Shown here piece by piece: positions 257-8,270 of a stretch of 41,008 nt of DNA (position 1 is its first letter; each line of letters begins with the position of its first letter). Where the stretch lies: IMG/VR virus record IMGVR_UViG_2541047933_000001; one strand, given 5' to 3'. The notes under the pieces were generated by a model. It was not told where the DNA came from, did not search any database, and saw nothing but the letters and a program-made list of their open reading frames with translations. Origin of the DNA: a virus (lineage: Duplodnaviria; Heunggongvirae; Uroviricota; Caudoviricetes). A program made the translations under genes and the position numbers.

Positions 257-5089
<4,833 letters not shown>

Positions 5090-5161: not shown

Positions 5162-5217
5162 TTAATTTGCTCCAGATACAAGGAATCGCCGAAGCATGGC
5201 TACGGTGAATTTTGGGC

Positions 5218-5243
5218 ATAAAAAAACCCAGCCGAAGCTGGGT
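5218..5243 (-). terminator. Rho-independent terminator between ant and the tailspike gene
   Basis: Minus-strand hairpin ACCCAGCTTCGGCTGGGT followed by a U7 run. Confidence 0.7.
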
Positions 5244-5261
5244 CGTTGCGTTGGTTATCTA

Positions 5262-6185
5262 TCAGTAGTTATGTACTGAAGGAGGTAATTCTTTATTCTT
5301 AAGTCTCATCCATGCGGAAAGATTCGTTGGTCCGTCTGGCTCATTAATATCAACATCTCGTGTATGGTTGATTAAAACATCTCTCGCCATTCCGATAACA
5401 TACGAGAATTCATGACCGTAGTCGTAGCATCTGCCGGAATAGTTCGATTGAATTTGTTTTAGCGCCTGATACAGTTCGCGGAATAATGCCTGTGAGCGGT
5501 TGGCATAATCCCATAGCCATACAAGGCTGTTTACTTCTTTTGCAGAAAGCTCGTTGGTTTTCTTCTCTTGTTTGCCAATGAACTCACCTTCAAGTGGAAC
5601 TCGAGCTGCAAGTGATAGTGCTTCGGTAAACTGCTCCTCACTGATTTCTTTGTACGAACATCCAAAATGGGATTTCAGTGACGACCACATGGTGATCATC
5701 GCCTTAGCCTGTTTTTCTTTTGGCAGAGACTGACCGCGACTCATGACGAGTTGTTTAATGGCTTCCTGCTGTTCAGTGGTGATTTTACCCTGCAACGCCT
5801 TTTTAGCTTTGCGTGGGTTAACTACATGGCCTTTAGTCCAGTACTCGTAGAGCACATCGTCACACTCTTCCTGATACTGGATTACCTTGTCGCGGATTTC
5901 AGGGCGGACTTTGTTAGGACTGATGCTGTTCAACCAAGCTGCCAATTTTCGTAAAGCCATACAAATCATGGCTTGCACCCCACCGGCAGAAGGTATGGTG
6001 ATTTCCACCATACCATTCGAGAATCGTTGAGAAATCTTCTTATGTTGAGATTTCCAGTCTAGCCCCATTCCCTCAACGATAGGTTTCATTGGGGTATACG
6101 GTTCGCCGTTGTGATTGACAACATAAAGCTCTGCGCCGTGGAATGGTACATTGATAGTAGATACTGCTGTTGCTATACTTTTCAT
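5262..6185 (-). CDS. ant: Antirepressor Ant (immI region)
   Basis: 307-aa ORF directly downstream of arc and upstream of the tailspike gene, the P22 immI arrangement; domain assignment is from position and size rather than a recalled alignment. Confidence 0.65.
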   Translation of the reverse strand: MKSIATAVSTINVPFHGAELYVVNHNGEPYTPMKPIVEGMGLDWKSQHKKISQRFSNGMVEITIPSAGGVQAMICMALRKLAAWLNSISPNKVRPEIRDKVIQYQEECDDVLYEYWTKGHVVNPRKAKKALQGKITTEQQEAIKQLVMSRGQSLPKEKQAKAMITMWSSLKSHFGCSYKEISEEQFTEALSLAARVPLEGEFIGKQEKKTNELSAKEVNSLVWLWDYANRSQALFRELYQALKQIQSNYSGRCYDYGHEFSYVIGMARDVLINHTRDVDINEPDGPTNLSAWMRLKNKELPPSVHNY

Positions 6186-6248
6186 GTCGTTAATTCCTAT
6201 GCGTGGTTTTACGATACCGAAGCCCTGACTGTTCCCGCAGTTGGGGCT

Positions 6249-6452
6249 TCAACTTTCTGCTCTATCAGTTATATCTTTCCCTTCGTATACTTCACCTATA
6301 TTGCTAATGCTGGCAGAACATCCAAGATGCTTGTATCTTATGATGTCCAACACGCAGTCACTACACAGCATCCGACCTGTTTCTTTAGAGTAAATGTATG
6401 TTTGATCAGCGTCTGATTCGCTAATGCCGCAGAAACAACATTCTTTACTCAT
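6249..6452 (-). CDS. Small Cys-rich (zinc-ribbon-like) hypothetical protein between arc and ant
   Basis: 67-aa ORF with paired CxxC-like motifs (CCFCG ... CSDC); start overlaps arc stop (ATGA). Confidence 0.45.
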   Translation of the reverse strand: MSKECCFCGISESDADQTYIYSKETGRMLCSDCVLDIIRYKHLGCSASISNIGEVYEGKDITDRAES

Positions 6453-6589
6453 ACCATCACCCCCTCTCTCTTCAAGCTGTCCAGCACCCGTTTAATTACT
6501 TCTGCGCTAAACGATCGACACTCTTCCTTTGCTTTCTCTTCAAGGATTTTTTCTAACTTCTCTGGCATACGCAGTGTTTTTACCTTCAT
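6449..6589 (-). CDS. arc: Arc-like ribbon-helix-helix repressor
   Basis: 46-aa product MKVKTLRMPEKLEKILEEKAKEECRSFSAEVIKRV... follows the P22 Arc pattern (R.P.E......A.E.GRS.N.E); GGAGG RBS upstream. Confidence 0.7.
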   Translation of the reverse strand: MKVKTLRMPEKLEKILEEKAKEECRSFSAEVIKRVLDSLKREGVMV

Positions 6590-6694
6590 TGCATCCTCCG
6601 CTGTATGTGGTACGCATACATAGTATTTAGGTACGCATTGATAGTCAATAGACACCTACATATCCTGTGGTAAAAAATTATTCAGGGTGTGCCG

Positions 6695-6952
6695 ATGTCT
6701 GATCGTAAGTACAAAAACCCTCAAGTGAATCTGAGGCTTCCTGTAGAGATAAAGGAACGTCTTATTGAACTGGCTGAGGCTAATTCTCGTTCATTAAATG
6801 CTGAGATGGTCGCTGCACTTGAAGCATGGACCGAAAAAAATAAACACATTCAAGCACTAGACCTTGCAACTATAGCATCACGATTGATAGATCTTGAACA
6901 TGATGTTGAGAAGTTGAAATGCATGTATGGCAACAATAAAGACGAAAGTTAG
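6695..6952 (+). CDS. Mnt/Arc-family ribbon-helix-helix protein, extra paralogue upstream of mnt
   Basis: 85-aa product ...NLRLPVEIKERLIELAEANSRSLNAEMVAALEAW... carries the RHH signature; divergent from arc. Confidence 0.6.
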   Translation: MSDRKYKNPQVNLRLPVEIKERLIELAEANSRSLNAEMVAALEAWTEKNKHIQALDLATIASRLIDLEHDVEKLKCMYGNNKDES

Positions 6953-6975
6953 AGATACTAACTTGGAGTGATGGC

Positions 6976-7224
6976 ATGGCTAGAGATGATCCGCACTTTA
7001 ACTTCCGTATGCCTTTGGAAGTAAGAGAAAAATTGAAATTAAGAGCCGAGGCTAACGGAAGGTCAATGAACTCTGAGTTATTACAAATCGTTCAGGATGC
7101 GCTATCAAAACCATCACCGATTGCAGGTTACCGTGACGAAGCAGAACGTATGGCTGATCAGCAAGCAGAAATTGTTAAGAAGATGGTGTTTGAAACCCTG
7201 AAAAAAATGTACGAGACCAGATAG
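6976..7224 (+). CDS. mnt: Mnt repressor (near-identical to P22 Mnt)
   Basis: 82-aa product MARDDPHFNFRMPLEVREKLKLRAEANGRSMNSELLQIVQDAL... matches recalled P22 Mnt almost residue for residue. Confidence 0.9.
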   Translation: MARDDPHFNFRMPLEVREKLKLRAEANGRSMNSELLQIVQDALSKPSPIAGYRDEAERMADQQAEIVKKMVFETLKKMYETR

Positions 7225-7266
7225 GTCAATGTTTGTTCGTTGATATAAAATAACAAGGTATACATT

Positions 7267-7866
7267 GTGATTGAGATAGGCGTTATGGCCATCCTGAATC
7301 AAGAGCCAGGAAAAATTGAAAACGTTTTTTCTGACATATCAACATCTATCGAGCGTTCAATTTCAGACTTTGATCGCAGTCATAGCGGCTCTTTGTCTAA
7401 AAAACAGGCTTCTGAAGCTCTTAGCAAGATCTACTGCGTTATGTCACCTGTAGAGGAAGTTTGCAAAAAGTACATTACATTCATTGACATATTAAGTAAT
7501 GGTACAGAAGAAGATATTTCCTCACTTAATATTCAACATGACGATGTAGATATGTTGAACGATCAGATATCTAAGCTTGATTATGGTATCGCGAAACTGT
7601 TGTATACCTTCTTCATCGCTGAGAACAGCGATGCGTGGAAGCCCCATATGTCAACTCTTACAACAATGAAAAACCACTCAATCAATACTTTTATAGAATA
7701 CAAAAGGCTAACAATGGGGCTTGTGACGCTAGCAATGCAGCACATACCACTATCATATGCTGAACCTGAAGAGTTCACTGAAGAAGAGTTGGCTTCCTTC
7801 AAGAAATCAGTTGAAGATTCACATAAAAGATTTGGCATGGAAGCACCAAAATGGAAAACCGCATAA
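7267..7866 (+). CDS. Hypothetical protein, gene 1 of AT-rich accessory module (sieA-locus position)
   Basis: 199-aa ORF (GTG at 7267, alternative ATG at 7285); no recognisable motif; AT-rich; stop overlaps start of next gene. Confidence 0.55.
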   Translation: MIEIGVMAILNQEPGKIENVFSDISTSIERSISDFDRSHSGSLSKKQASEALSKIYCVMSPVEEVCKKYITFIDILSNGTEEDISSLNIQHDDVDMLNDQISKLDYGIAKLLYTFFIAENSDAWKPHMSTLTTMKNHSINTFIEYKRLTMGLVTLAMQHIPLSYAEPEEFTEEELASFKKSVEDSHKRFGMEAPKWKTA

Positions 7867-8270
7867 GCATTGTTGTAGATGCAGCGGCTGGACCATTAGA
7901 ACAATACTTTGCGAAGGCTCTTGCAAACTACAAAAACAGAGGCACCGTTTCAGCTTATCTTGGTAAGATTGGTGGGTTTGAGAGAAACCATCACGCCGTC
8001 TTATCGGGAATTTACAAGTCGCACATCAGGATCCCTGGAGTAGATGATCCTTGGTTAAGAACAACGCCAATACATCGTAGAGTTAGCGATAACTTTTTGA
8101 TATTTGCGGTACACAACACATATCCAATTCATATCCAGATCATTGCTATCATTAAACCTGATGGTCATGAGAAGGTAAAAAAACTATTGCCAGCCATCAT
8201 TGATATAACTGAAAAAAGATTCCAATCTCTAAATGAGAGGGAGCTTAACTCGTTGATTTCATACAAATAA
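7851..8270 (+). CDS. Hypothetical protein, gene 2 of accessory module; C-terminal half faintly RelE/ParE-like
   Basis: 139-aa ORF, ATG overlaps upstream stop; segment RRVSDNFLIFAVHNTYPIHIQIIAIIKPDGHE resembles the conserved strand region of RelE/ParE toxins; weak, unverified. Confidence 0.55.
   Translation: MENRISIVVDAAAGPLEQYFAKALANYKNRGTVSAYLGKIGGFERNHHAVLSGIYKSHIRIPGVDDPWLRTTPIHRRVSDNFLIFAVHNTYPIHIQIIAIIKPDGHEKVKKLLPAIIDITEKRFQSLNERELNSLISYK

Follow-up and report, generated by a model that had tools for sequence, protein, structure and literature searches.

The immunity-I (immI) region of phage P22 is a regulatory switch familiar from textbooks, and two of its products, Arc and Mnt, serve as models for ribbon-helix-helix (RHH) proteins. 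In P22 and in phage epsilon34 its parts follow the order mnt - Omnt/Oarc - arc - sar - ant, with Mnt as the repressor of ant (PMC11016777, PMC12922286). Here we analyse the immI region of IMG/VR record IMGVR_UViG_2541047933_000001, a stretch of viral DNA of 41,008 nucleotides (nt) to which, as a whole, we refer as the window. As in P22 and epsilon34, the region lies between the ejection-protein and tailspike genes, within the part of P22-like genomes that Villafane et al. (2008, PMC2629481) called the 'ant moron', and from 5200 to 7300 the DNA is 100% identical to that of Enterobacteria phage CUS-3 (CP000711.1), from Escherichia coli K1 strain RS218. The system is of a known kind, present here in a variant form, and our overall conclusion, which we hold to be probable though far from secure, is that the locus is a mosaic antirepressor-control region in which one repressor/operator module has been replaced by another.

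Several of the features by which a P22-type immI region is recognised were found. These are an antirepressor homologous to that of P22, with both of its domains (P22_AR_N, 155 bits, 1.1e-45, against a cut-off of 30.7; P22_AR_C, 100.7 bits, 5e-29, against a cut-off of 22.4), a sar RNA across the ant start, complete from position 1 to 68 of its Rfam model (84.6 bits against a gathering score of 43, E 1.3e-17) and accompanied by Psar and its terminator, an Arc-family gene at the head of the ant operon, and a divergent Mnt-type repressor, together with a mnt nearly identical to that of P22. An earlier reading of this DNA, made from its letters only (the sequence-only reading), had described 6249-7224 as an immI region expanded relative to that of P22; each feature that it described was found where it had been placed, and the extra open reading frames (ORFs) are real genes. 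Unlike P22 and epsilon34, the window has no Omnt or Oarc, its predicted promoters stand back-to-back instead of overlapping fully, its arc gene (here arc') is only distantly related to arc, an additional cysteine-rich ORF (the Cys ORF) separates arc' from ant, and two Mnt-type genes lie in tandem, the P22-type one having no operator. P22 and epsilon34 have both Omnt (AGGTCCACCGTGGACCT) and Oarc (ATAGTAGAGTGCTTCTATCAT), whose sequences we read from the original immI record; with up to 4 mismatches allowed, neither was matched anywhere in the 41 kb of the window; at 5 mismatches Omnt gave two matches, both within the tailspike gene and fewer than expected by chance. The absence of both operators points to an immI of a specificity other than that of P22. 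Altered operator specificity had been suspected before, and it is borne out by the P22 operators being missing and a different control core being conserved across loci.

Divergent from arc' lies a gene for an 85-amino-acid (aa) RHH protein, rhh85, which is followed by the P22-type mnt. The sequence-only reading had regarded the 85-aa gene as an addition upstream of a near-canonical mnt; the position is right, but the roles appear to be reversed, with rhh85 as the cognate repressor of this region and mnt as the odd one out. Nor is one a duplicate of the other, as had been entertained, the two sharing ~32% identity. All three RHH proteins, Arc' included, score above the cut-off of Pfam Arc (PF03869, 20.4 bits), and mnt also exceeds that of the C-terminal tetramerisation domain Repressor_Mnt (PF11423, 56.3 bits against 20.9). 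The rhh85 protein gave no match to PF11423 in Pfam, which makes it an analogue of Mnt by position and places it outside the Mnt family on this criterion.

The intergenic region between arc' and rhh85 had been said to hold direct repeats rather than P22 palindromes. The repeat GGTACGCAT does occur in exactly two copies in the window (6609-6617 and 6630-6638), against 0.23 expected by chance, and two copies were reached in 3 of 100 shuffles. The P22 palindromes are indeed missing, but dyad symmetry is not, since TGTATGTG-GTA-CGCATACA forms a dyad at 6602-6620 and ATTGA-TAG-TCAAT a palindrome at 6637-6649. The palindrome was set aside as a candidate operator, being at least equally well explained as two back-to-back -35 hexamers, TTGATA on the plus strand and TTGACT on the minus strand, at 6638-6648. 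The rightward promoter predicted from these pairs the TTGATA box (6638-6643) with a -10 element TATCCT (6661-6666) that stays TAnnnT in diverged loci; the leftward one pairs TTGACT (6648-6643) with TACTAT (6625-6620). The dyad at 6602-6620 overlies the predicted -10/+1 of the leftward promoter, and in the P22 record Omnt similarly lies just downstream of the -10 of the annotated arc-ant promoter.

We collected and classified 80 IMG/VR loci encoding relatives of rhh85. Across 40 distinct control regions the core is near-invariant though the flanking repressor genes diverge to 45-60% identity, the invariant blocks of the alignment being GCATACATA, GTACG(C/T)ATTGATAGTCAA and TACC(T/C)AC. The core elements (the 6602-6620 dyad and the 6628-6659 block) occur in nearly all loci with a promoter-proximal rhh85 relative, down to 48-75% protein identity, and the window-type core is absent from L013 and L059, the loci in which rhh85 is distal. 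Wherever the core is present the rhh85 beta-strand is invariably PQVNLRLP, whereas that of Arc' varies (KTLRMP, KTIRMP, SSVRFP, VSVRMP), and thus the core travels with rhh85. From this we infer that rhh85 is the cognate maintenance repressor, the Mnt analogue, of this SEN22-type immI class. Covariation, examined for operators of Arc' or rhh85, has the core tracking the rhh85 beta-strand without cleanly separating the individual sub-sites, and which protein reads which of them is a matter of inference. The core is rich in ATAG(T/A) motifs, and residues 9-16 of rhh85 (window 6719-6760), PQVNLRLP, share with PQFNLRWP of P22 Arc a Q/N/R triad, which we take to be the base-contact residues in the Arc-operator structure; triad and motifs together offer a lead for predicting the rhh85 sub-sites.

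Salmonella phage SEN22 (SEN22_19/SEN22_18) shares with the window the N-terminus of Arc', an rhh85 homolog (SEN22_18, ~85% aa identity) and an intergenic core that is almost identical, with flanking coding DNA that is much less conserved. It differs in having no second mnt, no ORF between arc' and ant, an ant interrupted by a transposon and another arc' C-terminus, the Arc' of the window being SEN22-like at the N-terminus and of E. coli type at the C-terminus. By this comparison SEN22 appears to represent the donor type of the swapped module. E. coli P22-like prophages would then possess an alternative specificity class with a sharply conserved core of ~65 bp, and this core and its repressor a natural second operator/repressor pair for specificity studies.

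In alignments with CUS-3 and P22, which the sequence-only reading had proposed, identity to CUS-3 is complete over 5200-7300, and homology to P22 is interrupted by the swapped segment. On the right, homology to P22 starts at ACTAACTTGGAGTGATGGCATG, ~20 nt before the mnt start, and the window therefore has neither the promoter region of P22 mnt nor either P22 operator; on the left, it stops at the sar terminator, at the stop of the Cys ORF. What appears to be the parental, canonical arrangement is seen in locus L091, with the order ant - unrelated 89-aa ORF - P22-type arc - Oarc/Omnt - mnt, its mnt allele being 99% identical (aa) to that of the window and preceding the same two downstream genes (199 aa and 139 aa). 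Given this parental state and the ends of the homology, the window would have arisen by replacement of arc and its operators: in an ancestor with a canonical region like that of L091, the segment from the sar terminator to the mnt 5' untranslated region (UTR) would have been exchanged for a SEN22-type Cys ORF - arc' - core - rhh85 segment, which brought its own Mnt analogue and stranded the resident mnt 3' of it. In the 23 nt between rhh85 and mnt no promoter consensus, operator or terminator was found, and because neither terminator nor promoter consensus intervenes the two genes are likely to be co-transcribed. In 72 of the best 80 loci with a P22-type Mnt, both Omnt and Oarc lie just upstream of the gene, and in the remaining 8 the gene lies behind rhh85 with no Omnt within 2.5 kb.

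The tandem of rhh85 and P22-type mnt, found in 11 loci, is one of at least 6 different heterotypic array types among the rhh85 loci. In L020 and L021 rhh85 is followed by a 611R6-type Mnt, and in L077, L081/L082 and L085 rhh85-like genes are followed by three further Mnt types; in L059 a 'type C' Mnt precedes rhh85, and L013 has a three-gene array of type C, rhh85 and P22-type mnt. Because the window-type core is absent from L013 and L059, it is rhh85 that there appears to be the operator-less gene. Heterotypic Mnt arrays whose distal members lack an operator in cis thus emerge, from these comparisons, as a recurrent feature of P22-like prophages, and a search of the literature for tandem or stacked Mnt repressors found nothing relevant. 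The C-termini of otherwise heterotypic Mnt proteins (L013, L059, L077, L004 and others) share a ...FKEALLETLKTMYGKD.K tail, and it is mainly in this tail that rhh85 alleles differ; the shared tail is likely to be a recombination hot spot that aids the building of tandem arrays.

We propose that the switch would work as follows. The predicted leftward core promoter would drive arc'-cys-ant, and the predicted rightward one rhh85 and then, 23 nt on, the P22-type mnt. The rhh85 protein would keep the ant promoter shut in the prophage, and Arc' would supply early negative feedback. The sar RNA, whose promoter Psar lies inside ant, has its complement in the cys-ant intercistronic region, where it spans the ribosome-binding region of ant and the final two codons (6 nt) of the Cys ORF; it would stop ant translation. 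The stranded Mnt, co-expressed from the prophage and with no target in its own genome, would act on P22-immI phages, whether incoming or co-resident, by repressing those of their ant operons that are under Omnt control. Through such repression in trans, the resident repressor would be protected against the antirepressor of foreign phages, and immI immunity would cover a second specificity.

Immunity in trans is the reading of the distal P22-type Mnt that we favour, if tentatively and at rather less than even confidence. In the classical immI genetics of Susskind and Botstein, the Mnt of a P22 prophage reportedly represses the ant of a superinfecting P22 in trans. A P22-type arc-operator-mnt region is present in 181 of 5426 complete E. 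coli genomes, and therefore targets in trans circulate in the same host. All 12 distal copies of P22-type mnt are intact, with the DNA-binding residues conserved. The N-terminal segment MAR(D/N)DPHFNFR(M/I)P, which presumably carries the DNA contacts, is nearly unchanged among them, and in the window copy the N-terminal MARDDPHFNFRMP is identical to that of P22 Mnt. Over codons 1-50 of the distal copies the ratio of nonsynonymous to synonymous divergence (dN/dS) is 0.03-0.08, with dS near 1. We gave this low ratio less weight as evidence of function, however, since the allele diversity comes from recombination with canonical phages.

Several observations weigh against immunity in trans. The low dN/dS itself appears to reflect the mnt gene pool at large rather than selection in the distal position. 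The full arrangement of the window was found in 44 of the 5426 E. coli genomes, and most rhh85-type loci (~60 of 80) have no second repressor. The block from the Cys ORF through arc' and the core to rhh85, with the junction, is 98-100% identical across tandem loci, and divergence among their mnt genes begins at different points inside mnt, which mark recombination breakpoints; the tandem junction thus looks young and of single origin, with mnt alleles exchanged with canonical phages. The promoter and operator calls consist of consensus matches and conservation. In RNA-seq of Kapi1, a different P22-like E. coli prophage, mnt transcripts went undetected in lysogens (PMC12922286), and therefore expression from the prophage is not to be assumed.

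The strongest alternative, which is itself possible rather than probable, is that the distal mnt is a neutral passenger left by a recent swap, perhaps transcribed by read-through and too young to have decayed. The single recent junction, the mosaic mnt alleles re-seeded from canonical phages and the rarity of the arrangement are all as this explanation would have them. There is also a precedent in phages L, ST64T and ST104, whose ant morons have mnt and no ant and which, like the window, keep a Mnt-type gene that has no cognate ant operon beside it in cis (PMC2629481, PMC8022706); for the mnt-like genes of L and ST64T a new function or remnants of a degrading immI have been suggested (PMC8022706). 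The orphan mnt of the window differs from these in belonging to an array, where a functional immI of another type precedes it, and in having a DNA-binding domain with essentially the sequence of that of P22 Mnt, against 'poorly conserved' in L. Further points speak against a passenger: ribosome-binding site and DNA-binding residues are kept in 12 of 12 intact copies, heterotypic arrays have formed repeatedly with different partners, one of them a three-gene array, and true decay looks different where it is seen, in the O157:H7 immI, which shows frameshift and truncation. That decayed region is L008 (E. coli O157:H7 JEONG-1266, 2404296-2404570 region), with a frameshifted Cys ORF, a truncated arc, an intact ant and a 611R6-type Mnt; it sits among lambdoid prophage tail genes, adjoining nleL, and recurs at 95.6% identity in many O157:H7 genomes.

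The Cys ORF had been described as translationally coupled between arc and ant, and it does begin with an ATG that overlaps the arc stop (GGTATGAGT), with a purine-rich Shine-Dalgarno-like run, GAGGGGGTGA, upstream. It forms a PHROG family of its own (7150), to which no function is assigned there. A word-indexed search returned near-identical E. coli proteins only. An exhaustive phmmer search gave 13 matches, of which 12 were large TPR, Ig and other repeat proteins matching in many short stretches, rejected as compositional noise, and P0014 alone was real. The Salmonella proteins P0014 and P0019 (68 aa) are 28-35% identical to the Cys ORF product and keep E4, C5, C6, F7, C8, G9, K23, T25, C30 and C33, and the P0014 gene has the corresponding place between arc and ant, with a 4-nt overlap with its arc. 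By these signs the Cys ORF is a real gene. In P0001, a 112-aa protein from a 2.5-kb contig of a Logan assembly, Arc' and the Cys ORF are fused in frame (...LKRGGDGMSKECC...), probably through a 1-nt change at the ATGA overlap or an assembly error.

Several comparisons lead from the Cys ORF product to the N-terminal zinc-binding domain (ZBD) of ClpX (PF06689, PDB 2ds5). In Pfam the sole match of its homologs was zf-C4_ClpX, at 13.2 and 10.2 bits, below the cut-off of 27, and the window's own protein gave no match to PF06689; P0019 carries the UniRef name 'ClpX-type ZB domain-containing protein', and hhalign against the N-terminus of E. coli ClpX returned a 42% probability. The pairs C5/C8 and C30/C33, invariant in the family, match the CxxC...CxxC ligand pattern of the ClpX-type domain. 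A single-sequence AlphaFold2 model was too poor for use (pLDDT, the predicted local distance difference test score, 56), whereas one from a five-sequence alignment reached a pLDDT of ~72 over residues 1-40 and contains a knuckle and a beta-hairpin as well as a helix (31-42), which begins at the second CxxC. The protein had been labelled a zinc ribbon, which would have two beta-hairpin knuckles and no helix with the second ligand pair; the model, of moderate confidence, instead puts C30/C33 at a helix start, as in a treble clef. Foldseek found no match with an E below 0.08 in PDB or BFVD, PADLOC had no match for the protein, and weak RNF4 RING matches in a PDB sequence search (E 0.005) were taken as generic treble-clef similarity. 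In contrast to the ClpX domain, the product is a stand-alone protein of 67 aa with no AAA+ module, its C-terminal 25 residues are variable and predicted to be disordered, and all of its sequence and fold scores lie below accepted thresholds. It looks like a candidate ClpX-ZBD-like treble-clef zinc finger, and because the profile matches are sub-threshold we do not claim family membership.

The place of the Cys ORF is taken elsewhere by unrelated ORFs of 57 aa (phiv205-1), 73 aa (611R6) and 89 aa (EC.P3/L091), and in many loci by nothing. Comparison of L004, L005, L006, L009 and L091 gave common flanks, namely an Arc C-terminus ...DSLKREG(V/I)xV with ATGA (window 6449-6480) and the sar terminator (6229-6254), which look like recombination boundaries for the exchange of cargo. 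Even the P22-type Arc of L091 has this E. coli-type C-terminus. Ant proteins are 98-99% identical between a locus with the Cys ORF (L060) and loci without it (L050, L063), and therefore the Cys ORF is not an obligate partner of Ant. On our proposal it would be a swappable, early-expressed cargo rather than a component of the switch, and the layout predicts that it is expressed along with Arc' and Ant once the ant promoter becomes active. The idea, also raised by the sequence-only reading, that it modulates Ant is not one we favour. In its wider form, a zinc-finger partner would act on Ant or Arc' by stabilising, by inhibiting or via ClpXP, and in keeping with this the gene is coupled to arc' in its translation, lies in one predicted transcript with ant, has Salmonella homologs in the same slot and encodes a product resembling the ClpX ZBD. 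We nonetheless consider such a switch part improbable, given the near-identity of Ant with and without the ORF, the unrelated ORFs or empty slots of sister phages, and the frameshifted copy in O157:H7.

Two further explanations fare worse. That both Mnt-type proteins act in cis, the P22-type Mnt binding a degenerate site (e.g. AGGTACGC...ACACCT, 6629-6658) as a second layer of ant repression or for autoregulation, is very unlikely: the outer AGGT...ACCT arms of the core resemble the ends of Omnt and the two genes are apparently co-transcribed, but the arms stand ~29 bp apart against a compact Omnt of 17 bp, the search of the window at up to 4 mismatches found no Omnt, the same core operates in ~60 loci without a P22-type mnt, and the DNA-contact N-terminus of Mnt is unchanged from P22. 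Least credible of all is that the Cys ORF is not a gene and owes its conservation to sar, the terminator or other RNA elements, since, unannotated in CP000711 and with few homologs as it is, it has homologs that at 28-35% identity keep E4, C5, C6, F7, C8, G9, C30 and C33, shares slot and 4-nt overlap with P0014, has its own PHROG family and is covered by sar over its last 6 nt only.

Returning to immunity in trans, we can extend it to the arrays in general, in a picture that we regard as less likely than not. Arrays would be a stackable 'anti-antirepressor' immunity, with the proximal gene serving the phage's own ant and distal genes silencing other immI classes in trans, and early cargo, such as a ClpX-ZBD mimic possibly hindering substrate recognition by host ClpXP, would have a hot spot in the arc-ant slot. 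The ClpX ZBD binds substrates and adaptors, and a mimic that competes for them is speculation by analogy; a literature search for phage ClpX-ZBD mimics found nothing relevant. If the picture were true, an array would shield the resident prophage from induction by foreign phages, and distal genes acting in trans would amount to a simple cross-immunity between prophages, via antirepressor-mediated induction, in pathogenic E. coli; K1, uropathogenic and avian pathogenic strains (UPEC, APEC) carry the window-type element. Directly 3' of mnt in L004, L006, L010, L013 and L059 lies a gene for a ClpP-like protease (178 aa, PF00574), which in L010 shares the locus with the ClpX-ZBD-like P0014; the pairing of protease and zinc finger is inconsistent, the window having no protease and L013 no zinc-finger ORF.

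The sequence itself is not new, having been public since 2007, and its genes are largely annotated by PGAP, which in RefSeq E. coli genomes labels this stretch 'Arc family DNA-binding protein (x3) | hypothetical protein'. What is new is that rhh85 and the conserved core are assigned to an immI class with a specificity of its own, that the tandem is traced to a module swap, that heterotypic Mnt arrays are seen to recur with distal genes lacking an operator, and that the arc-ant cargo slot is described with its ClpX-ZBD-like protein. New as well is a correction to the literature on CUS-3. The CP000711 record names both plus-strand genes (rhh85 and the 82-aa gene) 'mnt' and marks the stretch of arc' and the Cys ORF as 'bsq2; boundary sequence', without a coding sequence (CDS); because of this CUS-3 was said apparently to lack arc (Villafane et al. 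2008, PMC2629481). The ORF program starts arc' at a GTG at 6655, and a better start is the ATG at 6589, with GGAGG 7 nt before it, which gives a gene of 46 aa. As read from the sequence, this gene contradicts the published view and corrects the impression that CUS-3 controls ant without an arc gene. The coordinates of all features are collected in the table.

Table. Features of the immI region, with positions in the window
Feature	Position	Strand	Basis or remark
Intrinsic terminator-like hairpin and T-run, 3' of ant	5225..5244	-	Terminator annotated at the equivalent epsilon34 position
ant, antirepressor, 307 aa	5262..6185	-	Pfam P22_AR_N and P22_AR_C; named ant in CUS-3
Psar-like promoter, TTGATA-17-TATACT with upstream TG, inside the ant 5' end	6151..6179	+	Position of the annotated Psar of epsilon34
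sar antisense RNA	6187..6254	+	Rfam RF00262
Cys ORF, putative cargo gene, 67 aa (C5/C6-x-C8 ... C30-x2-C33)	6249..6452	-	ATG overlaps arc stop as ATGA
arc', 46-aa Arc-family RHH, leads arc'-cys-ant operon	6449..6589	-	Pfam Arc, 33.8 bits
Conserved control core	6602..6666	.	Near-invariant in 40 distinct control regions
rhh85, 85 aa, RHH domain and helical-looking C-terminal region	6695..6952	+	Pfam Arc, 40.1 bits
Junction of rhh85 stop and P22-type mnt 5'-UTR (ACTAACTTGGAGTGATGGC)	6953..6975	+	Alignment with P22 and L091
P22-type mnt, 82 aa, promoter-distal	6976..7224	+	Pfam Arc, 96 bits; Repressor_Mnt, 56.3 bits

Outside the identical stretch, the window differs from CUS-3 by an IS21-family element, IS100 (3130-5084, with istA at 3217-4239 and istB at 4236-5018), inserted ~24 codons into the endosialidase tailspike gene and absent from CUS-3 by sequence comparison. 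The insertion had no match in any complete E. coli genome of our collection, and owing to it the prophage of the window is probably without a functional tailspike. On the other side, 3' of mnt, a gene for a 193-aa protein (phrog_18235, 7285-7866, plus strand) overlaps one for a 139-aa protein, which has a YafO-toxin domain (7851-8270, plus strand; Pfam 3e-11); this pair is also found behind the canonical mnt of L091. PADLOC gave marginal coiled-coil-type matches for the genes downstream of mnt, none of them convincing. No terminator was detected between mnt and this pair, which may serve as a toxin-antitoxin system or in defence, within the operon expressed from the prophage.

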